NCBI GenBank assembly: GCA_964632335.1 | Contig: CAZWDF010000002.1 | Span: 1-31,568 of the forward strand | Source: an uncultured Candidatus Saccharibacteria bacterium | Lineage (GTDB): Bacteria > Patescibacteriota > Minisyncoccia > Minisyncoccales > CAZWDF01 | Reading direction: 5' to 3' | Length of the DNA: 31,568 nt | Shown here: piece by piece, positions 223 through 25,187 of the stretch | How positions within the stretch are numbered: position 1 is the first letter of the stretch | Layout: each line of letters begins with the position of its first letter | Made by a program: the position numbers and the translations under genes | The notes under the pieces: generated by a model | What the model was told of the DNA's origin: nothing | What the model saw: the letters and a program-made list of their open reading frames with translations, nothing else | Databases searched by the model: none

Positions 223-239
223 GTCGAAGACTCTTCGAG
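223..239 (+). promoter_or_regulatory. Dispersed 17-bp palindrome, copy 1
   Basis: GTCGAAGACTCTTCGAG; TCGAAGA-C-TCTTCGA is a perfect inverted repeat just upstream of the SD for ORF 253. Confidence 0.7.
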
Positions 240-252
240 TTAGGAACTAAAC

Positions 253-438
253 ATGCAGTGGGACAAGTTACTCATAATCGTTTTACTGGTTGCGATAGCA
301 GTCATGCTTCACAAGTTAGTCACCCGCAACTCTACTTTGAAAACTACAGCATCTAAGACTCCGCTAGGGGTAGCTACAGAAGCCACAACGGCACAAGAAG
401 CACTGTTGTTAGCTTATCCAAATTGTAGAACTATTTAG
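253..438 (+). CDS. 61-aa N-terminal TM protein, probable virion membrane protein
   Basis: Hydrophobic LLIIVLLVAIAVML; directly upstream of the capsid genes. Confidence 0.65.
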   Translation: MQWDKLLIIVLLVAIAVMLHKLVTRNSTLKTTASKTPLGVATEATTAQEALLLAYPNCRTI

Positions 439-451
439 GAGGTAATGAACT

Positions 452-946
452 ATGGCAGTTGCAGTACTCAGGTCAATCAAATCAGAGATATTTTACCTAA
501 CGCAAGCGGATGCCACTGCCCAAACGGATTCCCAAGTAGAAAATTACGCTTTGCGGTATACCTATGCACCGATTTGGAAATATCAAGTCCCGGTGAACCA
601 AGAGTTTGTCTTGGCTCCAGAGCACAAGCTCTCAGTCTATATTGAGGACGATGAAAGTAGCCCTGCCGAATGGCGTAGTACGCAAAAAGTGAGGGTTGAG
701 TGGTGGGATGCTAGTCTCAAAAAGATGGAGATTATCTGGGAGGGTCGCTATATATCATGTAAAGAGGAGCAGGATCAAGATAAGATGGCACGTCTTGATA
801 TTATAGGTGGTGAACCGCTAGAAGTGAAATCTGGGGATTGGATTATTATTGCTGGTATGTCTGATGACACGCTGTATACGATTGATGTCTCAGATAGCCG
901 ATTTACCCTTGAATGTCGAAGGTTTAGACCGACCCTAATCCAATAG
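452..946 (+). CDS. Major capsid protein 1, single vertical jelly-roll (Halopanivirales-like)
   Basis: SD GGAGGT; paralogous to 960 and 1868 (WKYQVP, KVRVE..D, KEEQDQDKM); IDVSDSRFTL resembles SH1 VP7 C-terminus as recalled. Confidence 0.72.
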   Translation: MAVAVLRSIKSEIFYLTQADATAQTDSQVENYALRYTYAPIWKYQVPVNQEFVLAPEHKLSVYIEDDESSPAEWRSTQKVRVEWWDASLKKMEIIWEGRYISCKEEQDQDKMARLDIIGGEPLEVKSGDWIIIAGMSDDTLYTIDVSDSRFTLECRRFRPTLIQ

Positions 947-959
947 AGGAGGCAAATAT

Positions 960-1853
960 ATGAAAGAAGTCAAATTTCAACTGACTGACCTAGACCCCAA
1001 CATCACGGAAGATGGTGTTTTTGGGGCTGCTAAGTGGTGCGATACTTGGAGCTTCCAATGCCCTGAAAATATGGGCATTTTGCTGAAACCGGGGGACTAC
1101 TTCTCCATGAAGATGTACGACACTGGTGATGCTGAAATGGCTGCCCCAGATGCCCAGGTCAAGCTCGAAGTTCGTGACCCCTCTGGTCAGGTAGTAGGTG
1201 TTGTCTTCCCACCTGAAAACTACCTTAGCGTAAAGGAATTTCAGCAATACTCCAAGATGGCACAGCTTTGGATAGAGCAACCAATCCTGGTCACTCCCCG
1301 CAGCAAGATTGTCGTTATGACCAAGGATGATCTTGGTACGGATGCAAGTGGTATTGTTCTGAGTTATGCCCGGCTGATAACAACTAAAGTGCTAGGCACA
1401 TTCGCCAAGGGGCAATCACCAAGCCTACCGAGTATTGAGCCTTTCGTTATCATGCAAGAGGATTCCGATGTAACGCAAACAAGTAGCACCGCTGGGAGCC
1501 TGACTGACCTATTCGTCTATCGAGTACCAAAGGGCAGAGCGATAATTCTGAGACCGAGCGATGTCTTTGCCTGCTATCTCTATAACACTTCTTCCGCGGT
1601 CGCAACCAATACCTGCCCGGTAAAACTCGAAGTCCGCGATGCCACTGGCTTAGAGAAAAAGCCCATTCTTGGACCGCTTCAATACGGTAGCTTCCAGGGA
1701 GAGTTCCAGGATAAGGACAAGCTCGTTCACCTTGACATCAACGGCGAACTGACAGTAGTGGAGCAGGAATACATCGCCTTGATGGTAAACAACGCTGTAG
1801 CGATAAACTGTGCTACGAGCTACATGTCGCTTCGTTGCCATATCCGGAGATAA
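960..1853 (+). CDS. Major capsid protein 2, two tandem jelly-roll domains
   Basis: Homologous halves (LLKPGDYFSMKMY..VKLEVRDPSG..KEFQQYSK vs ILRPSDVFACYLY..VKLEVRDATG..GEFQDKDK); MKMYDTGDAEM resembles P23-77 VP16 LKLYDTGGNQL as recalled. Confidence 0.78.
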   Translation: MKEVKFQLTDLDPNITEDGVFGAAKWCDTWSFQCPENMGILLKPGDYFSMKMYDTGDAEMAAPDAQVKLEVRDPSGQVVGVVFPPENYLSVKEFQQYSKMAQLWIEQPILVTPRSKIVVMTKDDLGTDASGIVLSYARLITTKVLGTFAKGQSPSLPSIEPFVIMQEDSDVTQTSSTAGSLTDLFVYRVPKGRAIILRPSDVFACYLYNTSSAVATNTCPVKLEVRDATGLEKKPILGPLQYGSFQGEFQDKDKLVHLDINGELTVVEQEYIALMVNNAVAINCATSYMSLRCHIRR

Positions 1854-1867
1854 AGGAGGCTGCCTAA

Positions 1868-2332
1868 ATGGTTATGACGGCAGTTAAAGAAGAGCGATTC
1901 GAAGTAAACCCGGCATCAACGGGGATAACCGAGCAAGATGGTAGGGGTACTAATTGGTGGGATATTTGGGACTTCAAAGTGTCTCTAAACCAGGTCGTTA
2001 TCCTGCGCCCCACGGATGTATTTTCGTGCTACCTTGTGGGTGACGATGCCGCCGCGATGCCTAACGCCACGAAAGTTCGGGTAGTCAAGCGGGATGTCGC
2101 TAATGAGGACTCTATACCTATTCTCCCGGTGGTGAATTATAAGCAGGCTCAGGAGTTTGCCGATAAGAACTTACAGATGCACCTTCGGGCTCTGGGTGGA
2201 GTTATGGAGGTGGTAGCAGAGGAGCATATCGTAGTTCAGGTTTCCGGGGCTGATGCTACGGGAACTGGAGATACCGATGCTTCGGCATCTCACTTCAAGA
2301 TATTTTGCACCAGAAGGAGAAAGTCGCTCTAA
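1868..2332 (+). CDS. Major capsid protein 3, single vertical jelly-roll
   Basis: ILRPTDVFSCYL, ATKVRVVKRD and QEFADK motifs shared with the 960 domains; SD AAGGAGG. Confidence 0.72.
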   Translation: MVMTAVKEERFEVNPASTGITEQDGRGTNWWDIWDFKVSLNQVVILRPTDVFSCYLVGDDAAAMPNATKVRVVKRDVANEDSIPILPVVNYKQAQEFADKNLQMHLRALGGVMEVVAEEHIVVQVSGADATGTGDTDASASHFKIFCTRRRKSL

Positions 2333-2379
2333 GTAACGATAACTTTAGCTGGGCTACCTTGGTAGACGGTAGCTTCGCA

Positions 2380-2419
2380 GGGAGACTACCAGGTAAAGGT
2401 AGCCTCCCTATTTGTTTTT
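2380..2419 (+). terminator. Intrinsic terminator after the capsid genes, with a competing upstream stem
   Basis: GGGAG-A-CTACC / GGTAG-C-CTCCC followed by TATTTGTTTTT; GGCTACCTT (2352-60) can pair with AAGGTAGCC (2396-2404). Confidence 0.6.
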
Positions 2420-2438
2420 AGGAGAAGAGGGCAAGTCA

Positions 2439-2636
2439 ATGGCAAAAATGAGTAAGGCTGAGGCAAAGAGAATAGCACAGAGAAATGGTATCAGCTTCAA
2501 TGTAGGCTATCATACACTTCGCTCAAGCCAAACTGAACTATTGTCTGAACTCGCTAAGAAGACAGGTTATAGGAAACCAGCAAGTGCTAGTGGATCAAGA
2601 GCAAGGTATTTCTTCTATTACCTTGCCAAGAGATAA
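2439..2636 (+). CDS. Small basic hypothetical phage protein (65 aa)
   Basis: ATG at 2439 after a purine-rich SD; GYRKP..SGSRARYFF motif recalled from phage hypothetical proteins. Confidence 0.6.
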   Translation: MAKMSKAEAKRIAQRNGISFNVGYHTLRSSQTELLSELAKKTGYRKPASASGSRARYFFYYLAKR

Positions 2637-2681
2637 AAGGCAAAAGGACGGAAATAATATCCGCTTCCTGGAGGGCATGAC

Positions 2682-5543
2682 ATGACAATAGCATTTACAA
2701 GAGCAACTAGAATAGATGAGATAGATCCGAGCTATCTTCCCGATAACGATACCCTGAGCTTCGGCGATGATTTCCCCATGAACATAGTCTGGGATACCAA
2801 AGACGCTAATGCCAATATGGGGAAAATCAACCTACCGAGTGGCGGAGCGATTGATGTGCCGGTACTAGCAATAGGCATCGGGATCATAGACGTTGACCTT
2901 GGCTGGGCTAATGGGGTAACAGAACCATCAATAGCCATTGTTGACGCTGACCGAGATAGCTACATCACTTTCGGATTTGCTTCAGACGATAATGCCCAAA
3001 TCCAAAAAGGTGGTAGCGCGTGGTTTTCCATGAGTCTCGGTGGTACTGTGCCAGCAACCGTTGACCATAGTTCGGGACTAACTGGGGTAAGCGCAGTCTA
3101 TAATGACCTCGGCACTCTTGTCTCTAATCAAACCTATCGAGGCATCTACGGGCGATGGAATGTCAAAAGCACCACGCCGTCTAACCCTACCTGCGAAGTA
3201 ACAGGCATTGAAGGGGCTGCTGGGTCGGCTATCAATGACGAGGCGATAACCTTCCGAGGCGGGTATTTTAGAACTTACATTGACACTGACACATTAGCAA
3301 CTGCCTCCATGCGCACCAATGTTGGCTGTGAAATATCAGCGCGCGCTGCTTATCTTGGTGGAACTGAGGCAACGGCTGAGGGTGGCACAGCCTTTATCGG
3401 CGCTCGCATCTGGATGGCCCCCTATTTCAGTGACGCTAGCATAGGGAATATAAACAACTTCCACGCCTTATGGATAGTAAACGAGGCAGACGGAAAGACT
3501 GTCACAAATGCCATAAAGATAGATTCGAGCACTTATGGCGGTGGATTCTCCTATGCTTTCTACACCGATGGTGGGCGCTTCTATCAGGTCGTAGACGGCT
3601 CTGTTAATGGCTCTCTTCTTCAAGCTGCGGATAGTTCGGCAACTGGCTGGAATCTTATTGAGGCAAGGGCTGAGGACTATCGGACACTAACAAGTAGCCA
3701 GGAATATAAAGGGGCTTATGTCCGCTACAACGTGCGGTCTACTACTCCCAGCAATCCCACCTGTGAAGTCACTGGTATTGAGGGCGTAGCAGGTAGCTAT
3801 ATTGCCGATGAAGCTATAACTTTCAGGGGCGGCTACTTCCGCACCTATATCAATGCAGACGCTACCTCCACCATGAGAACTGCCGTGGGTTGCGAGATTT
3901 CAGCCCGGGCAAGTTATAGCGGCGGAACGCAATGCGTTGCTGAAGGTGGGACTGCCTTTGTGGGAGCCAGGATTTGGATGGCCCCATACTTCACTTCGGG
4001 GTCTATTGGGAACGTTAATAACTTTCATGGCCTCTGGATTGTCAATGAAGCTCCAGGTAAATTCGTTACGAATGCCATTAAGATAGATGCCACGACCTAT
4101 AACAGTGGATTTACCTACTGCTTTAATACTGATAGTGGCAAATTCCGCATGGCTCTTGATGGGAGCGAAGCTGGTAGTGGCTTGCTAGCCGGGGAGACTG
4201 CAACTGCTACTGGCGATGATTGGTTCTATCTTCAGGTTGATGACTGCCGTACCCTGACTTCCCTACAAACCTACCGGGCAGCTTACATCCGAAACAACAT
4301 TCGCTCGACTACCCCTTCCAATCCCGCCTGCGAGGTTACGGGAATAGAGGGAGTCGCGGGAAGTTACATCGCTGACGAAGCTATCACGTTTAGAGGGGGC
4401 TACTTCAGGACTTATACCAACGCCGATGCCACGAGCACAATGAGGACGGCGGTAGGATGCGAGATAAGCGCCAGAGCATCATATTCTGGAGGGACAGAAT
4501 GCGTAGCGGAGGGCGGCACGGCTTTCGTTGGGGCAAGAATCTGGATGGCTGGCTACTTTACCGATGCTTCTATTCCAAATGTAAACAATAGCCACGCTCT
4601 TTGGATTGTCAACGAAGTTCCACACGGAGCGAATTGGGCTAAATATGTTGATAGAGCCATCACCATAGACTCCAATACTTACGGAGCAGCTTTTAACTAC
4701 AACTTCTACACCGATACGGGCAAGTTCTACATGCACCTTGATGGAGCGGTAGCTGGTTCCGGTGTAGTAAAAGGTGAACGATTAAGCACTTCTGGTGACG
4801 ATTGGATGTCGGTGATAATAGACGATTACCGAACTCTTACTTCAGATCAGACCTATAATGGAGCCTTCTTCCGCTATAATATCCGCTCTACGACTCCTGG
4901 GGCTCCTCAAATGGAGGTCAACGGCATTGAAGCCGTAGCATCGACTTACGTTGCTGATGGCAACCTTCTGAGTATGCGAGGTGGTCATTTACGCTGCTAC
5001 ATTCAGCCTGGGGCTACAGCATCAGCAAAGACTTCGGTAGGTGCGGATATATCGGCCAGAGCTTCTTATAATGGCGGAACAGCCTGTCAAGCCTTAGCGG
5101 GTACTTGTTTTACTGGTCTCCGAATATGGATGGCTCCGTATTTTACCGGCGGCACAGTAGGTAACATTAATAACTTCTGGGGCTTGTGGATATTCGGTGA
5201 ACACTCTAGCCAACGAAACGCCGATGCTGCTATATTCATTAGTGATGCTGGAGGTGGTTATGTTGATGGTATCCGAATCAGCTCTGTTCTTTCGGGTTAT
5301 GGTATAGACCTAAACGGTTCAACGATAGCTACAGCAGACATTAGGATGAATAACGGTTGCGTGATAAACAACGATTTGGTCGATAGGATAATGATTGGGG
5401 CAGCTATCGGGATATGCAATGACGCGGCGCCGTCTGCCAATGCTCCAGCTAATGCTTGCGTCATCTACTTTGACGGTACGAACATAAAAGCAGTGAACGC
5501 TGCTGGAGCACACGCTACATTAGATAACGCAGGATTCGCTTAA
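2682..5543 (+). CDS. 953-aa spike/fibre-like protein with four ~190-aa internal repeats
   Basis: Repeat core STTPSNP.CEVTGIEG.AGS.I.DEAITFRGGYFRTY..GCEISARA..WMAPYF at nt 3192, 3762, 4329 and 4911; Gly/Ala/Thr-rich beta composition; follows the capsid genes. Confidence 0.7.
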   Translation: MTIAFTRATRIDEIDPSYLPDNDTLSFGDDFPMNIVWDTKDANANMGKINLPSGGAIDVPVLAIGIGIIDVDLGWANGVTEPSIAIVDADRDSYITFGFASDDNAQIQKGGSAWFSMSLGGTVPATVDHSSGLTGVSAVYNDLGTLVSNQTYRGIYGRWNVKSTTPSNPTCEVTGIEGAAGSAINDEAITFRGGYFRTYIDTDTLATASMRTNVGCEISARAAYLGGTEATAEGGTAFIGARIWMAPYFSDASIGNINNFHALWIVNEADGKTVTNAIKIDSSTYGGGFSYAFYTDGGRFYQVVDGSVNGSLLQAADSSATGWNLIEARAEDYRTLTSSQEYKGAYVRYNVRSTTPSNPTCEVTGIEGVAGSYIADEAITFRGGYFRTYINADATSTMRTAVGCEISARASYSGGTQCVAEGGTAFVGARIWMAPYFTSGSIGNVNNFHGLWIVNEAPGKFVTNAIKIDATTYNSGFTYCFNTDSGKFRMALDGSEAGSGLLAGETATATGDDWFYLQVDDCRTLTSLQTYRAAYIRNNIRSTTPSNPACEVTGIEGVAGSYIADEAITFRGGYFRTYTNADATSTMRTAVGCEISARASYSGGTECVAEGGTAFVGARIWMAGYFTDASIPNVNNSHALWIVNEVPHGANWAKYVDRAITIDSNTYGAAFNYNFYTDTGKFYMHLDGAVAGSGVVKGERLSTSGDDWMSVIIDDYRTLTSDQTYNGAFFRYNIRSTTPGAPQMEVNGIEAVASTYVADGNLLSMRGGHLRCYIQPGATASAKTSVGADISARASYNGGTACQALAGTCFTGLRIWMAPYFTGGTVGNINNFWGLWIFGEHSSQRNADAAIFISDAGGGYVDGIRISSVLSGYGIDLNGSTIATADIRMNNGCVINNDLVDRIMIGAAIGICNDAAPSANAPANACVIYFDGTNIKAVNAAGAHATLDNAGFA

Positions 5544-5555
5544 TGAGGAAAGGTA

Positions 5556-5741
5556 ATGCAACTAATAACGAGAGAAAATCCAGCTACCGTTGTGTTAGTA
5601 GGTAGAGAGATGAGCCAAATGGCTCAAGGTGAGAACTTAAAGATAAAGGTGGCTGGCGTTGAAACTCTTAATACTGAAGTGCCACACGGGAAAGTGTGGG
5701 TGGTTGATATATCTGTGACCATAAAGGAAACTGCGGCTTAA
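5556..5741 (+). CDS. Small beta-rich structural or accessory protein
   Basis: SD present; lies in the spike module. Confidence 0.55.
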   Translation: MQLITRENPATVVLVGREMSQMAQGENLKIKVAGVETLNTEVPHGKVWVVDISVTIKETAA

Positions 5742-5754
5742 TAGGAGGTAAAAG

Positions 5755-6171
5755 GTGAAGAGAGTCAAAATCGATGACAAGCCTAAGACTATTCTAGGTA
5801 AGGCTTTCAGGGTAACGAATCCCGAAGGCGAAACATTTGGGGAGACTTATGTTTGTGAGCGATGCGGTAATGAGATAGTCGTGCAGAAGCCAAAGATGAT
5901 TGAAGAGGCAAGTTTGGTTGACCTCTTGAAGTTGCTAGTTCTTTCAATCCCCCGGCAGAAATGCACCATGCAGGACTCCATAAACGCCTTTGACTTCATG
6001 CAGCAGTCAAAGGAGTCCCAGGACGGCGTTCTAGCACTTACGGACGGCATACACGATTGGCTAAAGAAGGCTGTCAAGGAAAACGGGACTCAAATCTTTG
6101 GAGTCAATGCCAATGCGATAGAGAAGGCTTTGGAGAATTTCGAGAGGGTAAAGGAAAGCAAGGGGAAGTGA
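5755..6171 (+). CDS. Hypothetical protein with CxxC (CERC); possible spike chaperone
   Basis: SD GGAGGT, GTG start; function inferred from position only. Confidence 0.55.
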   Translation: MKRVKIDDKPKTILGKAFRVTNPEGETFGETYVCERCGNEIVVQKPKMIEEASLVDLLKLLVLSIPRQKCTMQDSINAFDFMQQSKESQDGVLALTDGIHDWLKKAVKENGTQIFGVNANAIEKALENFERVKESKGK

Positions 6172-7220
6172 TGTTTGACCCAACATCAGCACTATTAGGT
6201 GGCGCGGCTGCCTGGATACTCAAGCCTGGCAATGGTAGCAAGGCTATTACTGCACAACTACTTGAAAAGTTAAGTGCGGATAAGCCTAGCGTCTATGATG
6301 TGCTGACTTATGATGCTTTGGAAGCCAGGGACAATAAAGAGATAACTGTAGCTGGGGATTTTATCAATGTGGTGCATTACCCAACAACCGTTCCTTTCTA
6401 TATCAGGCTGAATGAAAAGGACAACCCCGCAATAGACTTAAATAGGCTGAAGACTATTCGCTACCCATTCTACCGCTTCTTTCTGACTAACATAGCTGGT
6501 GCGGGAACGATAATCTTGAAGGTAGGTAGGGGCTTGCAGCTTGAAGAAGAGAGCTATGGCATAGACGAACTAGCAGCGCGCATGGCCTCCCCAGTCACCT
6601 TTGACCGAAGGGGAGAGGTTATCTGGATAGAGAATTTTGAGAATAGCACAAATAAGTTAGTCACAGTAACGACTGCTCCCCACGCTAGCACCTTTGCCAT
6701 ATCGACTACAACGGCTCGAAACGGGGCAAGCTCAGGTTTACTTAGTATAGCAGTAGGCGAAACACTAACTGTCAGAAAGACCTTGGGCTTGACGCACCTA
6801 TCGAAAGTAGGGCTCGAAATATCCTTTACCCTAAGCGATTCCATCAACAATATCACTGCTAGCATCTATGTCAATGACGGTTCTTATTTACATTGGGCTT
6901 CTATTCGCTACCTTGAAAGCGACTCGAAACTGTATTACTACAATAGCGCCGGTGGTTTTACAGAGCTATATGAAACGCTTGATCTGGCAATTGCAACGCA
7001 GACCTTTCATACGCTGAAGTTCGTTGTGGATTTAACCACTCACAAATATGTGAGGATGATGCTAGACAATATAGCCGTTGATATGTCAACGCTGGCTTAC
7101 TATTATGCGGCCTCCGTGTCGTCACCATCGGCAGCCTTCCAGCTTGCCGTAGAGAACAATGCCATAGGTACGCAATATATCTATCTTGACGACATGATAG
7201 TAACGCAGAACGAACCATAA
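6171..7220 (+). CDS. Vertex/penton-like protein: N-terminal jelly-roll-like domain plus C-terminal lectin-like beta-sandwich
   Basis: Likely start ATG 6171 (MFDPT), coupled to the upstream stop; FYIRLNE..IDL..PFYRFFLTN.A domain followed by a VIWIENFE beta-rich domain. Confidence 0.55.
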   Translation: MFDPTSALLGGAAAWILKPGNGSKAITAQLLEKLSADKPSVYDVLTYDALEARDNKEITVAGDFINVVHYPTTVPFYIRLNEKDNPAIDLNRLKTIRYPFYRFFLTNIAGAGTIILKVGRGLQLEEESYGIDELAARMASPVTFDRRGEVIWIENFENSTNKLVTVTTAPHASTFAISTTTARNGASSGLLSIAVGETLTVRKTLGLTHLSKVGLEISFTLSDSINNITASIYVNDGSYLHWASIRYLESDSKLYYYNSAGGFTELYETLDLAIATQTFHTLKFVVDLTTHKYVRMMLDNIAVDMSTLAYYYAASVSSPSAAFQLAVENNAIGTQYIYLDDMIVTQNEP

Positions 7221-7229
7221 GGAGTAAGC

Positions 7230-7485: not shown

Positions 7486-7502
7486 GTCGAAGACTTTTTG
7501 AG
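7486..7502 (+). promoter_or_regulatory. Dispersed 17-bp palindrome, copy 2
   Basis: GTCGAAGACTTTTTGAG between stop 7484 and the SD of 7512. Confidence 0.6.
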
Positions 7503-13924: not shown

Positions 13925-14104
13925 ATGGCAAAAGCGGATAAGTACCAGGTCGAAGACTCTATTCGAGCTGCCAAATGCCCGGATTGTGGTCAATTCATGG
14001 ATAAAGTCCAGGTAGTAGTCATAGCGCAGATTTCCGAGGGCTTGGTTAAGCCGTCTGTGGTAGCTGTAACAGGCTGGGTATGCGCTAAGTGCTGTGAGGA
14101 GTAG
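13925..14104 (+). CDS. Small Zn-ribbon protein
   Basis: CPDC..CAKC. Confidence 0.6.
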   Translation: MAKADKYQVEDSIRAAKCPDCGQFMDKVQVVVIAQISEGLVKPSVVAVTGWVCAKCCEE

Positions 14105-18477: not shown

Positions 18478-18482
18478 ACTTT

Positions 18483-18511: not shown

Positions 18512-18512
18512 C

Positions 18513-18548
18513 TGCACCACAGAACAAATCTAATAATCTAGGTTTCAT
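18513..18548 (-). pseudogene. Orphaned 5' stub of the C5 MTase (MKPRLLDLFCGA)
   Basis: SD GAGG plus ATG; canonical MTase motif I start, homology ends at the inserted promoter. Confidence 0.7.
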
Positions 18549-18562
18549 ACATCCTCAATCAG

Positions 18563-18579
18563 CTCGAAGAGTCTTTGAC
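18563..18579 (-). promoter_or_regulatory. Dispersed 17-bp palindrome, copy 3
   Basis: Reverse complement GTCAAAGACTCTTCGAG, just upstream of the SD of the MTase stub. Confidence 0.7.
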
Positions 18580-18597
18580 CAGTGGTGGGTGTGCATC

Positions 18598-18921: not shown

Positions 18922-19105
18922 AACACCGCGCAGAACCCGAGCATGATGCTAACCTTTTTCATTTGCCTCTCTTCCACTCCTCGTAGATGCTGCACCTCTG
19001 GCAGATGCCCTCCTGGCAGAGGGTCTTCTTGTCGGCCCAACATAACTTGCCCTTAAAGGATTTCATTAAACGATTGCCTTTAATGTTTGACTTAAATCAT
19101 TCATT

Positions 19106-19912
19106 TCACGCCCCCAGCTCCATCACGGTCTGCGAGCATCTTCTCGCCGCGATCTCTGCATAGCGTTCCTCAATTTCTATCCCGATGCACTTTCGCCCTA
19201 GCTTCTTGGCACAGTAGGCGGTTGTGCCTGAGCCGAGGAAGGGGTCGAGGATAACCTCACCTTGCTGCGTTGATTGGGATATGAGAACTTTGAATAACCC
19301 AGTTGGCTTTTGTGTTGGGACTTCTTGGTCTGCTCCTTCAATACGTTTGCATTGGATAACATCGGGGATAGACAGGTCGTTTAACCTTCGGTTCTTTCCT
19401 TTGTCAAACATCAATATAAGTTCATAACAGCAACGATAGTGATAACCCATCCCCATTGATAACTTGTCCCAAACCAGCGTTTTTAAATGGTCGAAAGGTG
19501 GTGCATAATCTCGCTGACACGGATTCCCGTATTTGTCGCAACAGTTGAAGCCCAACCGCATGAGAATGTAGAAAGATGGTAATGTCACTTCATCACACAT
19601 CACGTAAGCATGTCGGGATTCTTTCAAGGATTCTGAAAACTGGTAAGTCAATGCCATCAAATTCTCATTCGGTATTGTCTTGAAGAACTTACTCTCATCA
19701 TCAGCCCCGCTACCCTTTCTTCCCATACCCATCCGTGCCGTAGTGCCAATACCCTCCCATCTTCTCATGCTCTCGTACGGTGGGTCAGTCAGCACTAGAT
19801 CAATGCTCCCCGCCGGTATCAGAGGCAGAACCTGACGGCAGTCAGCGTGGACTATGCACACCGCATCATCTGAATAGTAGGGCTTCGTGATCCCGAACTT
19901 ACTCCAGTCCAT
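19106..19912 (-). CDS. N6-adenine/N4-cytosine DNA methyltransferase (beta class)
   Basis: DLVLTDPPY (motif IV) precedes ILDPFLGSGTT (motif I); PTQKP; IGIEIEERY. Confidence 0.9.
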   Translation of the reverse strand: MDWSKFGITKPYYSDDAVCIVHADCRQVLPLIPAGSIDLVLTDPPYESMRRWEGIGTTARMGMGRKGSGADDESKFFKTIPNENLMALTYQFSESLKESRHAYVMCDEVTLPSFYILMRLGFNCCDKYGNPCQRDYAPPFDHLKTLVWDKLSMGMGYHYRCCYELILMFDKGKNRRLNDLSIPDVIQCKRIEGADQEVPTQKPTGLFKVLISQSTQQGEVILDPFLGSGTTAYCAKKLGRKCIGIEIEERYAEIAARRCSQTVMELGA

Positions 19913-20007
19913 TCTCTACCACACCACCAACACATTGCCGGTGGTGATGTACCAGCCGGTAGTTAGGTGCAGCCAGTAGTGGGTTACATAGCAATTCATA
20001 AACGTAA

Positions 20008-20292
20008 TCATTTCCCCTCCTTCTCTATTCGTGAATCTTCGATCTCTATCGGCTGGACTGGTCGCCAGCTCTTGTTGTAATCATGGCCACCGAATAAATA
20101 GCGTCCCACAGTCGGAGGATTAATCTTCAGCCAGCACCTTTCAGCCAGGATTGCCATGATTTCATTGGTCTTACAACGACTACAATCACTGCTATATTCC
20201 TCACATCGTGCAAATCTGCACCATGCGTTAAACCCGGGCTCGCAAATCTTGGCTATCTCTAACCGTAACTGCTCTTGCTCCTTGCTCATCAT
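20008..20292 (-). CDS. Hypothetical Cys-containing protein
   Basis: ORF track, co-oriented and tightly packed. Confidence 0.5.
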   Translation of the reverse strand: MMSKEQEQLRLEIAKICEPGFNAWCRFARCEEYSSDCSRCKTNEIMAILAERCWLKINPPTVGRYLFGGHDYNKSWRPVQPIEIEDSRIEKEGK

Positions 20293-20321
20293 TCTCCTTT
20301 TAGTGGCTCAATGAGGGCTGA

Positions 20322-20588
20322 CTATTCTATCCCCCATTCTTTGAGTTTGTTATTCCATCTATCCTTAAAACTGACTGGAATAGACGCCATATTCAGCATG
20401 GGAAATACCTCATCATTAACAAACTCCACCACTTCCTTAATCCCTGCCTTGAAGGAGATTTCAGCCTGGCCTTGAGCTATAATCTTGCACCACCCAGTTA
20501 CATTTTCGGCTTTACCCTCTTTTGACTTTTGCAACCTCACTTCGTTTATGGCGGCTATTGTCATTACAGTATCTTTCGCTTCTAGCAT
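20322..20588 (-). CDS. Hypothetical phage protein
   Basis: AEISFKAGIKEVVE..W..KLKEWG motif recalled from small phage proteins. Confidence 0.55.
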   Translation of the reverse strand: MLEAKDTVMTIAAINEVRLQKSKEGKAENVTGWCKIIAQGQAEISFKAGIKEVVEFVNDEVFPMLNMASIPVSFKDRWNNKLKEWGIE

Positions 20589-21004
20589 TTAACTAACCAC
20601 CTTCCATATGCCTCTTTACGACATAATCTACAGTCTCTTCCTGGTCTATCAGGACGTAAGTATGTGTTCTCATCATCATAGGGATGCCCTTTGGGACAAT
20701 GAGTTTTGCTTTCTTGATATTGCCTTCCGATTTCTGGCAATAAACCTCGCCTTATATTTTCGCTACGAGTTACAAGTTCCATATGGGCAGGATTAACACA
20801 TTTTCTATTCCTGCAAATATGGTCTATCTCCAAGTCCAAAGGAATGATTCCTACTAAAGTCTCATAGGCAAAGCGATGTGCCTTAATCTTTTTTCTGTTG
20901 ACATAAAAACTACCATATCCATTTGCATAACAACTCGCCGTCCATTCCCAACAGCCATCAGGAGTTCTATTTATGTTCTTCCAGAATCTAGCAATAGCTT
21001 CCAT
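20582..21004 (-). CDS. HNH endonuclease (HNH_3-like; start MEAIARF)
   Basis: GCWEWT..NGYG..KAHRFAYE..LEIDHICRNRKCVNPAHME; KTHCPKGHPY. Confidence 0.88.
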   Translation of the reverse strand: MEAIARFWKNINRTPDGCWEWTASCYANGYGSFYVNRKKIKAHRFAYETLVGIIPLDLEIDHICRNRKCVNPAHMELVTRSENIRRGLLPEIGRQYQESKTHCPKGHPYDDENTYLRPDRPGRDCRLCRKEAYGRWLVKC

Positions 21005-21219
21005 TGCTTCTCTCTCCTTTCTCTTGTTTGAAAGGGCATCCCCTACAGTGCCAGTCGCATCTAGCAGAATACCTTCTATCAATTTTGATAACCTTTCTAT
21101 ATCTCATTCTTCTTTCCTAGTGGATCAGTGAGGTTAAGGTATTATCCTTAGATTTCATGGCTACTCCTTCCCTTTGCCAGCTTGCCCAGAGCTACGGCCT
21201 GACCTAATATCCACTCTGG

Positions 21220-21237
21220 GTCAAAGACTCTTTCGAG
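21220..21237 (+). promoter_or_regulatory. Dispersed palindrome, copy 4 (1-nt insertion)
   Basis: GTCAAAGACTCTTTCGAG. Confidence 0.55.
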
Positions 21238-21393
21238 CTGATGGGTTTCTGCCTATCCCTCGGCCCTTAAGCGGGTTGCTGGCAGGCCCCATCTGGCAAC
21301 TAGCCCTGAGCCTACACGGACATCCCCTCCTGCCACTATTTGCACCCCTGCATTTCTGTCCTCATACACGCTAGAGTGCTACCCTCGGCTCAG

Positions 21394-21410
21394 GTCAAAG
21401 ACTCTTTGAG
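21394..21410 (+). promoter_or_regulatory. Dispersed 17-bp palindrome, copy 5
   Basis: GTCAAAGACTCTTTGAG, perfect inverted repeat abutting the stop codon at 21411. Confidence 0.7.
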
Positions 21411-21677
21411 CTATTCGACCTCATCTGGGACAAAGACAAGTGTGCCACTCTTGCCTTTATTTCTCTTACCCAAAAGTATGGCAGCATTACCGTCACTATC
21501 CGTATTGAATCTAATTCCCAATTCCCCTATCTGGCAATGCACTCCCTCGACTCGGAGTGCTGCTTCGTAAGCAGCTGCACCAGCTTCAAAGTAGTCAACG
21601 TCAAATGGAATTTCTTTAGCGTGAACGAGCTTATTCAATTCTTCTAACTGAATAACCTTCCAATTCTTAGGTCTCAT
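21411..21677 (-). CDS. Hypothetical phage protein
   Basis: MRPKNW..FEAGA..GTLVFVPD; SD GGAGG. Confidence 0.6.
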   Translation of the reverse strand: MRPKNWKVIQLEELNKLVHAKEIPFDVDYFEAGAAAYEAALRVEGVHCQIGELGIRFNTDSDGNAAILLGKRNKGKSGTLVFVPDEVE

Positions 21678-21686
21678 TCTCGCCTC

Positions 21687-21860
21687 CTATTGCAACTCAC
21701 CCTCTTTGAGTTTATGCCACTTCCTAATCTCCCAAAAGCCAAAACAAAAAAACCAATCATAAATATAAGCAAGGTCGGACACTTCTTTGTGCCATCTAAA
21801 CCAATAAAAACCCCGCCACTCAGGAAACCAATTAACGAATTGGAATCGCTTTTTATTCAC
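21687..21860 (-). CDS. 57-aa Trp/Phe-rich peptide (not in ORF track)
   Basis: GTG start coupled to the VRR-NUC stop; MNKKRFQFVNWFPEWRGFYWFRWH.. Confidence 0.5.
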   Translation of the reverse strand: MNKKRFQFVNWFPEWRGFYWFRWHKEVSDLAYIYDWFFCFGFWEIRKWHKLKEGELQ

Positions 21861-22213
21861 TGCAACTCCACCTCGGCCACTCGGGGGTCAAAGTGACAAA
21901 GATACGGATATAAGTCATGCAACTTTTTGATGACGACAGCCCAGGCACCCTGTTTCAAAACTTCATCCATGAAGTCATATTGGGCTTGGCTTAATTTGCC
22001 ACTATCTCCCTTCGTCTCCACATAAACCAAATGCCCTTTAATCAGCACCATGTAGTCGAAAGTGCCAGGACGACAGAGTTTGATTCGACGTCTACCTCCA
22101 GCAAACAGGGCAATGATTTCCCCACTATTCAGCCTGTCCCAGTACAGGATTCCCTTCTTTTCGAGGATTGAGAGATACTCTTCAAGGCTCTGCTTCAGTT
22201 CGGATTCCTTCAC
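21857..22213 (-). CDS. VRR-NUC domain nuclease (Holliday-junction resolvase-like)
   Basis: RLNSG..PGTFDYMV..VYVETK..GKLSQAQYDF. Confidence 0.8.
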   Translation of the reverse strand: MKESELKQSLEEYLSILEKKGILYWDRLNSGEIIALFAGGRRRIKLCRPGTFDYMVLIKGHLVYVETKGDSGKLSQAQYDFMDEVLKQGAWAVVIKKLHDLYPYLCHFDPRVAEVELQ

Positions 22214-22380
22214 TTCGCCACATCCTTTGCCTTTATTGCCAGACACCGCCTACACAATGGCTCTGTTTTGGCTGTGCGTCTCCAATGCAACAAGCCACAT
22301 AGCGTTGTGAAATCAGCACCGCACCACGTATCTTTTATTAGGTGAATCTTTTTGCCTCCCTTTGCCCTAACGTATGTCAT
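22210..22380 (-). CDS. 56-aa Zn-binding mini-protein (not in ORF track)
   Basis: KIHL..TLCG..LCRRC; SD AAGGA. Confidence 0.5.
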   Translation of the reverse strand: MTYVRAKGGKKIHLIKDTWCGADFTTLCGLLHWRRTAKTEPLCRRCLAIKAKDVAK

Positions 22381-22410
22381 TTCCTTACCTTCTCCAGCCC
22401 CAGATGATTC

Positions 22411-22596
22411 TCATTTGCTTGTCTCTTTACGACTATTGGTACGAATGTACCTTAGTATATTCTTGGGGGTGTAATAAGTAAGTTCCTGTTCCTTCTCATA
22501 AGGTGGATTTTTTATGATAGCTAGTATCCTATTCCACGGCATACCAGCAGGTATGGTATCATCTATGATTTGAAATTCTTGTTTGCCTTTCCTCAT
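22411..22596 (-). CDS. Hypothetical protein (start MRKGKQ)
   Basis: SD GGAAGGAG 5 nt upstream of the ATG. Confidence 0.5.
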   Translation of the reverse strand: MRKGKQEFQIIDDTIPAGMPWNRILAIIKNPPYEKEQELTYYTPKNILRYIRTNSRKETSK

Positions 22597-22601
22597 TCTC
22601 A

Positions 22602-22738
22602 CTCCTTCCCGCATCCGGGGGAGAGGTGCTTCACACCTACAAGATTAAATTTTGTTTCTCCTCGTAGAGTCTTCGACCCGAGGGTAGAATCTGTTTCACT
22701 AGTCGCCCCCAGACTCTACCCCCGGGATGGAAAGGAGA
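22602..22738 (-). ncRNA. Putative structured cis-regulatory RNA containing palindrome copy 6 (22661-22677)
   Basis: Outer stem 22602-21 / 22719-37, hairpin 22624-38, 12-bp stem 22682-93 / 22710-21. Confidence 0.45.
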
Positions 22739-22744
22739 TAGGGA

Positions 22745-23578
22745 CTATTCAGGGTACAACTTCTTCACTGCTTCAAGAGCCTTAACTGGTCCCTGCTTCC
22801 ACTCTGCCATAGTCTTCACCCCCAACATTGCTACCACATCTGCTTGAATGAGACCTTTCTTTCGGGAATAAGTCCAAAGTTCAGTATAGTCATCTGACTT
22901 TGTGGCTTTGGGCTTTTCTGCTTCGGTTTGGGGCTTTGCCTCTGGGCTTTGTCCTATTGGACTCTCAGGCTCAACCGCTTCCTTCTCTATACTCTCAGGC
23001 ATGTCTTCCAAATCCTGAGTGAACACATTAGACAGCCTACCGGCACTCAGGGCCGCATCCACCAAGGCTCGCTTCTTTGCCATCTTTAGGATAGTGTTGA
23101 CTTGGCTGAAAATGTCCTCATTATCAAAACGATAGACTGTCCAATGTCCACCTGTTTTAGAACGTCTTTCCTGGCTAACCAACTTAGTCTTATCAATTCC
23201 CTCTGGTAAATCCCTCTCACCTATCCACCGGTAGTGGTATTTGCTCTCCATACTGTTACATTCGCCAAAGCCCTGCGATATGATAGTCCCAGTTGCCAAA
23301 TGCCGAAGGTTGCACTGTAGCAGGTATCGGAAAAATGGCTTATTCCAATCCTCTTGCCTATCCAAGATTTCATATTCATCTGCCAAGCCAAGAAGTTTGA
23401 CTATCTTCTCGGCACCAGGCTTTAGTAACGTGGGCTTTGTAGTGCCGGGGATCACGCCATAATCCTGATCCTTGACCATGTTGGCATGAACTATTTGCTG
23501 GAACTTGTTGATTGCCTGAATGCTTTGCCTGAATTGTGCCTCGTCTGGTAGTGCTAGTGCTGTAGTTTCCATTGTCAT
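22745..23578 (-). CDS. Putative single-strand annealing protein (Rad52/Erf-like, inferred)
   Basis: DYGVIPGTTKPTLLKPGAEK..KMAKKRALVDA..FTQDLED; next to a PD-(D/E)XK nuclease. Confidence 0.5.
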   Translation of the reverse strand: MTMETTALALPDEAQFRQSIQAINKFQQIVHANMVKDQDYGVIPGTTKPTLLKPGAEKIVKLLGLADEYEILDRQEDWNKPFFRYLLQCNLRHLATGTIISQGFGECNSMESKYHYRWIGERDLPEGIDKTKLVSQERRSKTGGHWTVYRFDNEDIFSQVNTILKMAKKRALVDAALSAGRLSNVFTQDLEDMPESIEKEAVEPESPIGQSPEAKPQTEAEKPKATKSDDYTELWTYSRKKGLIQADVVAMLGVKTMAEWKQGPVKALEAVKKLYPE

Positions 23579-23757
23579 CTTTCTTCTCCTTCCTTTTTCT
23601 CTGTTATGGATATAGCTTTTTCGTAGGCTTTAGAAACTGCTGCCTCGGCTTGCTGGAGGGTAACCGCAGCATTTCTTACTTGCCTCATCGCTACCTCAAA
23701 CTCTTCCCACGCCTCAGCCTTTGCCTTCTTATAGGCTCTGTGTTTCTTGTCCATCAT
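23575..23757 (-). CDS. Small coiled-coil protein
   Basis: Helical Ala/Glu/Lys-rich; coupled to neighbouring genes. Confidence 0.5.
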   Translation of the reverse strand: MMDKKHRAYKKAKAEAWEEFEVAMRQVRNAAVTLQQAEAAVSKAYEKAISITEKKEGEER

Positions 23758-23774
23758 TCTCCCCCTTATCCTAC

Positions 23775-24446
23775 TTATCCTATTAGACCCTTCACGGTCT
23801 TGTGCCTCTTATGCAGATTCAAACAACTCAGAAAGGACTCCCACGCATCCGGCAATTCCTGTCTCCAGATGTGGTCGAAGCCCGCCGTGTCTTTGTCTAT
23901 GCGGAGCAGGTGGAATCCGCCCTCCAGTAGCATATCAGGGTGATTCTCTTCCCATGCTGCACGGTAGGCGGCAATCTGAAGGGCATACTCCTCGTGGATG
24001 GAATTGCTACTCTTCCAGTCAAACAAGCAAAGCCTGTCGTTTATCCGGGCAATGCAGTCTGGCGTAGCCCCATACTGCCAAATCTCAGAGACAAGATGTG
24101 GTTCGAGGGCCACAACTTCAAGATGATTCTGCCCTTTCCAAACAGTGAAACTAACAAAGGCTTGTATAGCCTTTAACTTTATGCCCTCTTCAACCTCTTC
24201 GGGAATATGGTATTCCTCTTTCTTTAGGTTAGCCTCAATCATTGCATGGCATATCGTTCCCGCATCCGCCGCCCTCTGCATTGTCCCTTTATAATCTTGT
24301 GGTCTTCCCGATAAGCCGTCATCATGCCCTCTGTTATAGTTCCAAATACACAATGGGGTCTTTGACCAGCCAAGGTTAGAGCCAATGATAGTTGTAGTCC
24401 CCGATACCCGATCGCCGTTTTTGTTTCTGTAGTCAATCGTAGGCAT
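23775..24446 (-). CDS. PD-(D/E)XK exonuclease-like protein (start MPTIDY)
   Basis: GTICHAMIE..YGATPDCIA..LFDWKSS..LQIAAY. Confidence 0.85.
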   Translation of the reverse strand: MPTIDYRNKNGDRVSGTTTIIGSNLGWSKTPLCIWNYNRGHDDGLSGRPQDYKGTMQRAADAGTICHAMIEANLKKEEYHIPEEVEEGIKLKAIQAFVSFTVWKGQNHLEVVALEPHLVSEIWQYGATPDCIARINDRLCLFDWKSSNSIHEEYALQIAAYRAAWEENHPDMLLEGGFHLLRIDKDTAGFDHIWRQELPDAWESFLSCLNLHKRHKTVKGLIG

Positions 24447-24456
24447 TGTTTTCCTT

Positions 24457-24708
24457 TCAGTGGATTGGCTTGTGCCACTCCCCAACCGTGGCAATGGCCT
24501 CCTCCCGCCCTGCCTCAAAGGTTTTACCCTTGATGAGGTCAATAAGCTCGGTAAGTGTGCCTTCCCACACCAACTCATCAGTATGGATAAGCCTTAACTC
24601 CCACCGTCCCCCTCCCTCATGGGCTTTGAGGTTCCCCTCGAGTGTTACAAATTGCCTATCACCTTCGGACTCATAGCACCGGAACCCCATCGATTTATAG
24701 TTTTCCAT
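24457..24708 (-). CDS. Hypothetical protein
   Basis: SD AGGAG; co-oriented. Confidence 0.5.
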   Translation of the reverse strand: MENYKSMGFRCYESEGDRQFVTLEGNLKAHEGGGRWELRLIHTDELVWEGTLTELIDLIKGKTFEAGREEAIATVGEWHKPIH

Positions 24709-24720
24709 GTCTCTCCTTTC

Positions 24721-24933
24721 CTAGTTCCTTGACGATAGCGCCTCTATCGCCAACCCTTCCATGCGTTCCACAAACTCATTTCTTCTCTGTATTTGAATCT
24801 CCCCCCACAACTGGCATGTTGCCGGGGCGGGTAGTCCTACATCTTCACCATGGTGGTGTGTCTTGGTATGAACTCCAGCCGATAGAAAGGTCGGCTGCTG
24901 CTCTTTGCAATTAAGACACTTGATGGTCTGCAT
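24721..24933 (-). CDS. Small Cys-containing hypothetical protein
   Basis: CLNC..C. Confidence 0.5.
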   Translation of the reverse strand: MQTIKCLNCKEQQPTFLSAGVHTKTHHHGEDVGLPAPATCQLWGEIQIQRRNEFVERMEGLAIEALSSRN

Positions 24934-25170
24934 TTACTTCATCCTCTCCGTAAATTCCTTCTTTGTGAGACCGCAATCCAAACAAACTCCATCTGAGAAA
25001 AAATGACCGTAGAGGGATCGCTTACCGTGTCTCTTCCATCCAATAACACGGTAGAGTTTGAGTCCCTCTTTTACCGAAGGCTTTGCCATTTTCCCTCTCC
25101 TTTCTTTTAGGCAGCCTGGCGAGCAAAGCGGTAACTCTGCCAAGAGGTGACATGACCTAACGAGGTACAA

Positions 25171-25187
25171 GTCAAAGACTCTTCGAG
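25171..25187 (+). promoter_or_regulatory. Dispersed 17-bp palindrome, copy 7
   Basis: GTCAAAGACTCTTCGAG, 7 nt after the stop of the HTH gene. Confidence 0.7.

Follow-up and report, generated by a model that had tools for sequence, protein, structure and literature searches.

Eight copies of a 15-nt palindrome in a circular virus-like element are probable insertions of a REP-like repeat of Dehalococcoidia

The eight copies of a short palindrome in a 31.5-kb circular, virus-like element are probably insertions of a REP-like palindrome that is very short and non-autonomous and that circulates in the genomes and mobile elements of Dehalococcoidia (Chloroflexota). The mobile unit is 16 nt long and consists of the 15-nt perfect palindrome TCGAAGA-C-TCTTCGA plus one G. 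The analysed window is the whole stretch of 31,568 nt that represents the virus-like element, and 8.6% of it is non-coding. The eight copies listed in the original prediction are all present, four as exact matches to the pattern, two with substitutions and two with extra bases; they are given here with their contexts, together with the two strongest neighbouring hairpins.

Copy 1, 223..239, plus strand: GTCGAAGACTCTTCGAG, a perfect palindrome and exact pattern match in a divergent control region; an ATG at 253 lies 13 nt downstream and the hairpin at 176-216 ends 6 nt before the copy.
Copy 2, 7486..7502, plus strand: GTCGAAGACTTTTTGAG, C11>T relative to the pattern; begins 1 nt past the TAA of 7230-7484.
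Copy 3, 13949..13967, plus strand: GTCGAAGACTCTATTCGAG, two extra bases; inside ORF 13925-14104.
Copy 4, 18563..18579, minus strand: GTCAAAGACTCTTCGAG, exact pattern match, co-directional with transcription; a TAA stop lies 18 nt before and an ATG at 18548 lies 14 nt after.
Copy 5, 21220..21237, plus strand: GTCAAAGACTCTTTCGAG, one extra T, opposing transcription; in the 328-nt non-coding gap 21083-21410, upstream of the HNH gene 20582-21082.
Copy 6, 21394..21410, plus strand: GTCAAAGACTCTTTGAG, exact pattern match and perfect palindrome, opposing transcription; touches the stop codon of the minus-strand gene 21411-21677.
Copy 7, 22661..22677, minus strand: GTCGAAGACTCTACGAG, one mismatch (T13>A), co-directional with transcription; between genes 22745-23578 and 22411-22614, directly after the hairpin 22680-22726.
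Copy 8, 25171..25187, plus strand: GTCAAAGACTCTTCGAG, exact pattern match, opposing transcription; between ORF 24934-25170 and the HTH gene 25195-25443, whose stop codon at 25195 is 7 nt away.
Hairpin by copy 1, 176..216, plus strand: on the GTC side, arms of ~19 nt that are 84% complementary; z = -4.25.
Hairpin by copy 7, 22680..22726, minus strand: on the GTC side, 17-bp stem; z = -2.9.

The proposed enrichment over randomised sequence is clear: a search allowing up to two mismatches returns six matches in the element against 0.01 expected, and a search allowing up to one mismatch and up to two inserted bases returns all eight, against ~0.04 expected and a maximum of 1 in 300 Markov simulations. 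Placement at gene boundaries is borne out as well, with seven of the eight copies falling within the small non-coding fraction (binomial ~3e-7) and with stop codons, Shine-Dalgarno (SD) sequences or ATG codons located 0-18 nt from five of them. Three copies lie 0-7 nt past stop codons, two overlap or precede SD sequences, and several are found inside operons, directly behind stop codons. The description of the motif as polar applies to its internal G...C...G asymmetry but extends neither to strand use, in which the bias (6 plus, 2 minus) is not significant, nor to the sense of transcription, with five copies running with it and three against it.

The 17-mer is not confined to the virus; host chromosomes carry it widely. 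Among the species-representative genomes scanned, 65 of the 118 exact matches listed come from ~28 Chloroflexota/Dehalococcoidia metagenome-assembled genomes (MAGs), where matches are frequently spread over many contigs of one MAG (at least 18 exact copies on 15 contigs in JACQOS01), and the same sequence is present in tailed-phage contigs. Most host copies are intergenic and are flanked by housekeeping genes of many kinds, drawn from 158 Pfam families (TsaD, pantoate ligase, EF-G/EF-Tu and NADH dehydrogenase among them); three copies lie beside a tRNA-Glu gene. Their orientation relative to the flanking genes is about even across all four configurations. At the host loci, 59 copies match the G/C form exactly and very few are degenerate, and the motif is near-invariant across genomes of 47-69% G+C. 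The Chloroflexota chromosomal contexts in which the 17-mer occurs have no genes in common with the virus-like element, and the shared palindrome points to a Dehalococcoidia host for the latter.

Among all sequences fetched, the 7-1-7 core has a C at its centre in every occurrence and a G on both flanks in 197 of 199, and the constant G...C...G frame described earlier thus holds almost throughout. The flanks follow an asymmetric, reproducible consensus, with C-A-G before the unit and S-K-R after it. In the comparison with motif-less counterparts, 24 matches span the junction. Under strict criteria, an empty partner exists for seven filled sites, and the length difference is 16 nt in every pair, never 15 or 17; two orthologous loci are among the pairs, as is a spacer with opposite-orientation motifs 4 nt apart. 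The orthologous loci L005 and L037 are 86% identical over 2.3 kb and differ at the compared site only by AAAAATC[GTCGAAGACTCTTCGA]GCTGATT. Loci L011 and L018, with 86-90% identity over a length above 5 kb, carry the motif in the same spacer, at positions 4 nt apart and with opposing orientations, and the motif has been inserted independently and in both orientations in these related phage sequences. Since the pairs differ by exactly 16 nt, the unit is a 15-nt palindrome inserted at a G, which then stands on both sides, and this accounts for the asymmetric G...G frame; a single G lies on either side of the unit, and one base cannot tell a duplication from a target preference. In principle, some of the empty sites could be precise deletions and not ancestral states.

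Relatives of the virus-like element were absent from the collections searched, and thus none of its eight copies could be matched to an empty site. The 3' GAG of copy 2 contributes to the SD sequence GAGGAG of gene 7512-7859, and removal of 16 nt restores a canonical stop-SD-start junction, TAA-A-GGAG-AATATC-ATG. In copy 3, the inserted block comprises 18 nt, or six codons (VEDSIR), so that the reading frame of the surrounding ORF, which encodes a zinc-ribbon-like protein of 59 aa, is kept. Taken with the host-wide occurrence and the insertions in both orientations, the 16-nt indels favor the miniature mobile repeat that had been offered as one alternative in the original prediction.

The virus-like element would have gained its eight copies during replication in a Dehalococcoidia host, and these would persist only at harmless places, namely between genes, next to hairpins already present and, in one case, as an in-frame block within an ORF. 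It is possible, if rather doubtful, that a trans-acting host enzyme of the HUH/Y1 type (RAYT or IS200-type) moves one strand as a hairpin, a mode of mobilization suggested by the invariable coupling of the centre C to G flanks and by the asymmetry of the flank consensus. No transposase-like Pfam domain, including Y1_Tnp, appeared among the 25 most frequent of the 158 families in 120 ORFs flanking host copies (MAG fragments of 2-8 kb), and no transposase was detected in the virus-like element. In 438 kb, isolated half-sites were few, at 29 against ~13 expected by our own estimate; none of these marks a larger element, and no parent insertion sequence (IS) is visible. At reconstructed target sites, predicted folding does not place the target G preferentially in unpaired positions (55% paired versus 53% for control positions). 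It is conceivable, though less likely than not, that the palindrome represents a new class of ultra-short mobile DNA, in which a 15-nt perfect palindrome would insert at a G, always on the same strand, and would be moved in trans by an enzyme among Dehalococcoidia chromosomes, their tailed phages and a non-tailed circular element. If true, this would be, to our knowledge, the smallest self-propagating prokaryotic repeat with base-exact boundaries and would provide a ready marker by which uncultured viruses could be assigned to Dehalococcoidia hosts. We know of no mobile element as small as 15-16 nt, a point that counts against the insertion reading.

The closest known counterparts are the REP/BIME sequences, which are mobilized by Y1 enzymes (RAYT/TnpA-REP), include GTAG- and CGTC-tagged superfamilies and resemble the motif in being short, extragenic, non-autonomous and present in many copies per genome. 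Like the motif, they occur in all gene configurations, are often clustered with or nested in other palindromes and can form RNA hairpins just past stop codons; in Thermomicrobium roseum, also a member of the Chloroflexota, GTAG-23 REPs sit inside small palindromes (PMC3733652). Several features set the two apart. REPs are imperfect palindromes of 20-40 nt with a loop of 4-5 nt, carry a GTAG or CGTC tag at one end and are species-specific, whereas the motif is a perfect palindrome of 15-16 nt with a single unpaired centre, lacks either tag and is essentially invariant across a whole class. Unlike REPs, it has base-exact boundaries, visible in the 16-nt indels and the G on both sides, and it reaches a high density in a virus-like element; an associated RAYT gene was not found.

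Occurrence in viruses has a precedent in host-specific MITEs that recur in viral genomes (vMITEs; Nadal-Molero et al., 2024, PMC11602168). These share with the motif a host-lineage-specific, non-autonomous and mainly intergenic presence in viral genomes and can be used for host assignment. MITEs are nevertheless 50-800 bp long, with terminal inverted repeats and multi-base target duplications, and derive from an identifiable autonomous IS with the same ends; the motif measures 15-16 nt in all, its 7-nt arms are trivially inverted repeats, and it has no visible parent IS. For the in-frame copy 3, Rickettsia palindromic elements (RPE) and in-frame REPs (PMC3733652) offer parallels of palindromic repeats tolerated within coding genes. 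RPEs measure ~100-150 bp, and among the eight viral copies there is a single in-frame case. The cyanobacterial HIP1 (GCGATCGC) is an 8-bp palindrome that is frequent within genes and whose spread is attributed to substitution. It is likewise a short palindrome conserved across a large bacterial lineage; the motif differs in its length of 15-17 nt, its extragenic location and its spread by insertion.

The density of copies differs between virus and host. The virus-like element carries ~1 copy per 4 kb as compared to ~7 extra copies in 446 kb of seeded host loci, a ~14-fold excess that passive colonization does not predict and that could reflect selection for a function. One such function, which we consider somewhat unlikely as the reason for the copies, is that the inserted element is kept by the virus for a useful transcribed hairpin that protects mRNA 3' ends, serves as a processing site or tunes translation. 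Such roles are described for REPs of Escherichia coli that lie within 15 nt of stop codons. The proximity of the viral copies to stop codons and SD sequences agrees with this reading, as do their high density for a compact genome and the conservation of pairing in two copies: both substitutions of copy 2 keep G-T pairing (G-U on the transcribed strand), and in copy 6 an A-T pair replaces G-C in a compensatory manner. Roles of REPs in translation and mRNA stability have been summarized (PMC12306157). Against this, the transcribed strand carries an A-C mismatch in copy 4 and an A-A mismatch in copy 7, copies 3 and 5 contain indels, and the predicted fold of the unit, a 6-bp stem with a triloop, is short and adds little predicted stability. 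No Rfam family speaks for a structured RNA either, as the element has no match in Rfam 15 at gathering thresholds and eight host loci have none covering the motif at E<=1. The five adjacent stems of the original prediction are partly upheld: those at 176-216 and 22680-22726 are strong, but the other three (21185-21220, 21305-21394 and 25155-25166) have no folding advantage over shuffled sequence (z = -0.6, -1.0 and -1.7). For the favored mobile element, a transcribed copy could form a hairpin of 6-7 bp at a gene boundary, with possible secondary consequences for mRNA 3' ends or for how the following gene is translated, an effect on RNA that is unnecessary to explain the presence of the copies.

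The original prediction favored an operator for a dimeric viral regulator, and an operator or 'stoperator'-like site, bound by such a viral regulator or by a conserved host factor and coordinating both arms from gene boundaries, is unlikely. Viral candidates would be the HTH_17 proteins 25195-25443 and 30896-31459 and the small RHH/VapB-like ORF 26966-27175, whose binding is putative. Mycobacteriophages L5 and Bxb1 carry stoperators, 13-bp repressor sites dispersed through the genome. These sites resemble the motif in that many copies of one short conserved site are located in short intergenic spaces on both arms of a temperate phage genome; the 7-1-7 palindrome moreover has the size of an operator, the copies are dispersed at gene boundaries, with one in a divergent control region beside an HTH gene, and the ~14-fold excess per kb over host loci could mean selection. 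Stoperators are, in contrast, asymmetric and phage-specific, point along the direction of transcription and are recognized by the repressor of the phage, while the motif is host-wide, of mixed orientation and an indel. The sequence recurs often in host chromosomes without genes in common with the virus, it comes and goes as a 16-nt indel whose orientation flips between orthologous spacers, and its copies are near-invariant and not degenerate as in transcription-factor regulons. Promoter-like hexamers show no fixed spacing relative to the copies, whose positions are also inconsistent with respect to starts and stops, with one copy lying within an ORF. The operator for a dimeric viral regulator is therefore not supported.

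Still less probable is a site of a conserved host factor for chromosome organization or 'self-marking' (cf. parS/ParB, Noc and SlmA), through which an episomal virus would gain segregation, compaction or protection. A sharp palindrome that is almost invariant across 47-69% G+C, with tens of dispersed copies per host genome and further dispersed copies enriched on a circular, integrase-encoding element, would suit such a role. Known examples of such sites, however, are tolerated in coding DNA, whereas the motif is strongly intergenic, indel polymorphism between near-identical sequences is unexpected for a conserved architectural site, and ParA/ParB-like genes were not found in the virus. The chance of a technical artefact, in which a palindromic linker or adapter with type IIS sites (GAAGAC, CTCTTC) was built into the assemblies, is negligible: by our own reading BbsI-like and EarI-like sites do overlap in the sequence, which is palindromic like some library linkers, but the matches are confined to a single bacterial lineage sampled by many independent projects and are strongly intergenic, with sequence variants that include an in-frame one and with a reproducible flank consensus. 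The 1-bp centre of the palindrome remains a reasonable argument against a tyrosine-recombinase core site.

The motif that recurs at gene boundaries in the window, a 15-nt palindrome framed by G on both sides, behaves as a 16-nt insertion shared with Dehalococcoidia, which supports and refines the miniature mobile repeat offered as one reading in the original prediction. All eight predicted copies were found, at 223, 7486, 13949 (inside an ORF), 18563 (minus strand), 21220, 21394, 22661 (minus strand) and 25171, and they exceed expectation by far: six against 0.01 with at most two mismatches, and eight against 0.04 with one mismatch plus insertions of at most two bases. Seven of the eight lie within the non-coding 8.6% of the genome, in agreement with the predicted siting at gene boundaries, and the constant asymmetric frame is present in every copy (G-[7]-C-[7]-G). 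The description of the motif as polar holds for its own internal asymmetry, but not for strand use (six plus, two minus) or for direction relative to transcription (five with, three against). Similarly, among the five adjoining stems that had been reported, those at 176-216 and 22680-22726 beat shuffled sequence, while the other three do not. The 328-nt gap at 21083-21410, assessed as a structured RNA, reached z-scores of only -1.4 and -1.8. Subtraction of 16 nt from copy 2 (7486) gives TAA-A-GGAG-AATATC-ATG, the canonical form of a compact gene junction, and copy 6 (21394) directly abuts a stop codon. Copy 3 (13949), previously termed degenerate, is 18 nt long and supplies six in-frame codons (VEDSIR) close to the N-terminal end of a zinc-ribbon-like ORF of 59 aa that has no homologues for comparison; its two extra bases would fit a change that restored the frame. 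Four viral copies carry an A at position 4, and Chloroflexi-like contigs from the environment also contain this GTCAAAGACTCTTCGAG-CTG subtype, where it often forms the loop of a larger hairpin repeat.

The size of the inserted unit was obtained by deleting the 17-mer from each occurrence and searching the joined flanks against all fetched sequence. Matches to motif-less counterparts cross the junction in 24 cases, nearly all with exactly one extra G. Under strict criteria, seven different filled sites (with the motif) have an empty counterpart (without it), and the difference is 16 nt in all seven and 15 or 17 nt in none. The orthologous contigs L005 and L037, 86% identical over 2.3 kb, differ at the site solely by the bracketed sequence in AAAAATC[GTCGAAGACTCTTCGA]GCTGATT. 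In a second orthologous pair, L011 and L018 (86-90% identical over more than 5 kb), the same spacer, with a terminator-like hairpin on one side and a phage gene on the other, reads ...CCCCAAAA-G-TCGAAGACTCTTCGA-G-GAGG... in one member and ...CCCC-TCGAAGAGTCTTCGA-C-AAAAGGAG... in the other, and these are two insertions of independent origin, oppositely oriented and separated by 4 nt. The unit is thus a perfect 15-nt palindrome, TCGAAGA-C-TCTTCGA, with one duplicated target G, or equally 16 nt beside a G, which explains the constant asymmetric G...G frame. After strand normalization, the centre is C in 199 of 199 core occurrences and G stands on both sides in 197 of 199; most of these were selected by pattern, and the unselected extras agree. 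The flank preference is asymmetric (C-3 A-2 G-1, unit, S+1 K+2 R+3), with a purine at +3 in 71 of 71 host copies and eight of eight viral copies. The mobility of REP sequences has been unsettled for decades, and base-precise 16-nt indels offer a direct test of whether very small palindromic repeats move, in a system whose sequence requirements are very simple.

One genome per prokaryotic species was scanned for the exact pattern, which gave at least 118 loci, and at least 65 of those listed bear Chloroflexota, Dehalococcoidia or Anaerolineales titles. The Chloroflexota-titled loci derive from at least about 28 MAGs and many independent projects, often with several contigs per MAG; JACQOS01 contains at least 18 copies across 15 contigs. 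As the phylum makes up an estimated few per cent of the collection, the enrichment in Chloroflexota is very large. Copies in these host loci are near-invariant (59 are exact GTCGAAGACTCTTCGAG), and beyond the seeding copies only about seven more are found in 446 kb. The adjoining genes have ordinary housekeeping roles and span 158 Pfam families, with ribBA, ribD, tsaD, mutL and panC as examples identified by direct reading, and in tailed-phage contigs from IMG/VR the motif adjoins SU10-type capsid genes. Motif loci and the window have at most a distant ATPase or methyltransferase domain match in common. Host-wide occurrence without common genes therefore assigns the motif to the host lineage and its mobile elements and not to this virus. 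An exact-motif scan of IMG/VR gave 23 matches, mostly single and unrelated, with Dehalococcoidia-type contexts only in L005, L011, L014, L016 and L018.

In Dehalococcoidia, the motif can be embedded in a composite intergenic repeat (L033, L037, L056, L077, L084, L104, L128, L143, L146 and others). This repeat starts with a terminator-like hairpin, AAGAGGGGC-TTCG-GCCCCTCTT, followed by a covarying hairpin, CCCCCTCTCC...GGAGAGGGGG, and ends with ATACAG, the motif (present or absent) and GGGTGAGGT(T/A)GATAAATAAT; unrelated housekeeping genes lie downstream. No copy of the composite element was detected in GenBank phages or PLSDB plasmids. Long hairpin repeats enclosing the motif are also seen in seven contigs of JANONI01, a MAG labelled Bacteroidota (L038, L043, L051, L088, L111, L113 and L144), and in L093, labelled Coatesbacteria; either the JANONI01 and L093 contigs are mis-binned Chloroflexota or the element crossed phyla. 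At L058, three copies occur within 195 nt (6042-6236) around a tRNA-Glu gene, one of them stopping 3 nt before the 5' end of the gene and another beginning 11 nt past its 3' end. A second small palindromic module with the same half-site start, GTCGAAGACTCG(A/C)CTCTGG(C/A)GAG, is present at L066 (minus-strand offset 7757), L086 (offset 3013) and L140 (offset 3294), which suggests a family of related micro-palindromes in host genomes.

The sequence comparisons show recurrent insertion in both orientations, whose mechanism is inferred. The strict coupling of the centre C to the flanking Gs, together with the asymmetric flank consensus, implies that the insertion machinery tells the strands apart. 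Transposition of a single strand as a hairpin, as by HUH/Y1 enzymes (RAYT or IS200/IS605), would fit this asymmetry, as would a double-strand mechanism with an asymmetric target. Minimum free energy folding of reconstructed empty sites predicts the target G to be unpaired no more often than control positions, and does not support a preference of insertion for unpaired or loop positions. Pairing between the two flanks, by which the motif would come to lie at the apex of a larger hairpin, reaches -10 kcal/mol or lower in 10.6% of cases versus 3.7%, a modest, roughly three-fold excess. A host stem on the GTC side is significant in composite families with GGR flanks (p = 0.0004) and not in other contexts (p = 0.12), so that the upstream-hairpin bias comes mainly from paralogous composite families. 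No transposase was recognized in the virus, nor near host copies among the 25 commonest of the 158 flanking Pfam families, and the fetched sequence contains no sign of a larger element with the same ends.

The motif is about 14-fold denser in the virus, with one copy per 4 kb against roughly one extra copy per 60 kb in host loci, although its true host may contain more copies than the sampled loci. This enrichment raises the question of whether viruses exploit the inserts or replicating viral DNA is preferred as a target. Possible reasons are that a hairpin at gene boundaries has a function under selection, that viral DNA is targeted preferentially while it replicates, or that a host factor is used; these rank as rivals or additions to the insertion reading and not as replacements for it.

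The leading proposal of the original prediction, an operator for a dimeric viral regulator, is not supported by these results. The site is found in host chromosomes without the virus, it comes and goes as an indel, and its orientation is free, both in hosts (14/13/11/9 over four gene configurations, by crude gene calls) and in the virus. Copies also stand within operons directly after stop codons, promoter-like hexamers occur at chance level without a fixed relation to the copies, and the copy-to-copy sharpness is unlike that of a transcription-factor regulon. Some protein may still bind the motif, above all whichever enzyme mobilizes the element. For annotation, the case advises caution, since a conserved gene-boundary palindrome in a virus may be a selfish insert common with the host instead of an operator. 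A restriction or methylation site is disfavoured, as GANTC, GAAGAC and CTCTTC are ordinary in the genome and half-sites other than those in the copies are as frequent as expected. A linker or adapter artefact is rejected on account of taxon restriction, intergenic bias and sequence variants, and Rfam gave no match for the window and none over the motif in eight host loci.

Among known systems, the REP/BIME family is the closest kind, being likewise extragenic, palindromic, multicopy, nested in other palindromes and occasionally inserted in frame; however, the motif departs from REPs in length, loop and the GTAG/CGTC tag. REP-type repeats nested in other palindromes have been described in Thermomicrobium roseum (PMC3733652). 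Host-specific small repeats common to viruses and hosts are known in the case of MITEs (PMC11602168), but these are far larger than the 16-nt unit. On a genome map, mycobacteriophage stoperators resemble the motif, but they differ in their absence from the host and in their orientation. In the full-text literature searched, including that on Dehalococcoides, no description of the motif sequence or of so small an element was found, and there is a reasonable chance that the motif is something more unusual than a known kind.

The window itself begins and ends with identical 55-nt repeats (bases 1-55 and 31514-31568) and hence represents a circular element that is complete at 31,513 bp. Its recognizable features are as follows.

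Gene arms and predicted genes of the circular element
253 to 15406, plus strand: plus-strand gene arm
12057-12518, plus strand: HNH endonuclease (PHROGs)
15802 to 31459, minus strand: minus-strand gene arm
16869-17291, 20582-21082 and 27529-28191, minus strand: three HNH endonucleases
17288-18124, minus strand: C5 DNA methyltransferase
19106-19912, minus strand: N6/N4 DNA methyltransferase
23775-24578, minus strand: PD-(D/E)XK nuclease
25195-25443 and 30896-31459, minus strand: two HTH_17 proteins
25494-26399, minus strand: DnaC/IstB-like helicase loader
26338-27027, minus strand: replication-organiser-like protein
28188-28787, minus strand: tyrosine integrase
28791-29561, minus strand: P-loop ATPase of 256 aa, terminase-ATPase-domain-like (phrog_2666, E = 8e-16)

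The element is virus-like. No portal, capsid or full-length terminase was recognized among the window genes with Pfam and PHROG; the match of the P-loop ATPase to phrog_2666, annotated as terminase large subunit, is confined to the ATPase portion of that family, and the gene adjoins the integrase instead of standing among putative structural genes. In the plus arm, two of 30 scanned ORFs have a family match, namely the HNH endonuclease at 12057-12518 and one sub-threshold Pfam hit. Four HNH genes in 31.5 kb were observed, one of them immediately downstream of the 328-nt gap that holds copies 5 and 6. Where the gene arms converge, a strong 14-bp G/C hairpin (15665-15698, TGGGGGGAGGGA...TCCCTCCCCCTA) is probably a bidirectional terminator; it is similar to the C/G-rich hairpins found beside the motif in hosts.

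For the tested window proteins, the searched collections contain no close relatives, and the element seems to be a deep orphan. The ORFs at 960-1853 (plus strand, 297 aa) and 13925-14104 (plus strand, 59 aa) retrieved only themselves from 5.8 billion protein clusters, exact-protein lookup gave no match, and neither megablast nor tblastn with the window found matches among GenBank phages. Metagenomes scanned with the viral A-variant followed by CT gave no relatives of the virus; most matches are to a conserved low-GC gene, whose coding sequence agrees by chance, and others are Chloroflexi-like hairpin repeats. The motif points to a Dehalococcoidia (Chloroflexota) host for this orphan element, a lineage that matters for organohalide bioremediation. 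The description of Dehalococcoidia viruses is only beginning (bioRxiv 10.64898/2026.09.15.751708), and a recent preprint on non-tailed dsDNA viruses (IME1) of Dehalococcoides mentions no repeats.

With four window proteins as seeds, IMG/VR yielded only the repeat domain of the 953-aa protein, on unrelated contigs without the motif. The corresponding ORF (2682-5543, plus strand) has four tandem repeats of about 190 aa each with a conserved 'ARIWMAPYF' stretch (DNA repeats at 3375, 3939, 4506 and 5091), and this domain is the sole feature common to the window and the eight otherwise unrelated IMG/VR contigs L024-L031. Finally, GATC is strongly under-represented genome-wide (64 sites versus about 226 expected, z = -8.3), which suggests pressure from a GATC-specific host restriction system, and CTCGAG and TCGA are mildly low in the window.
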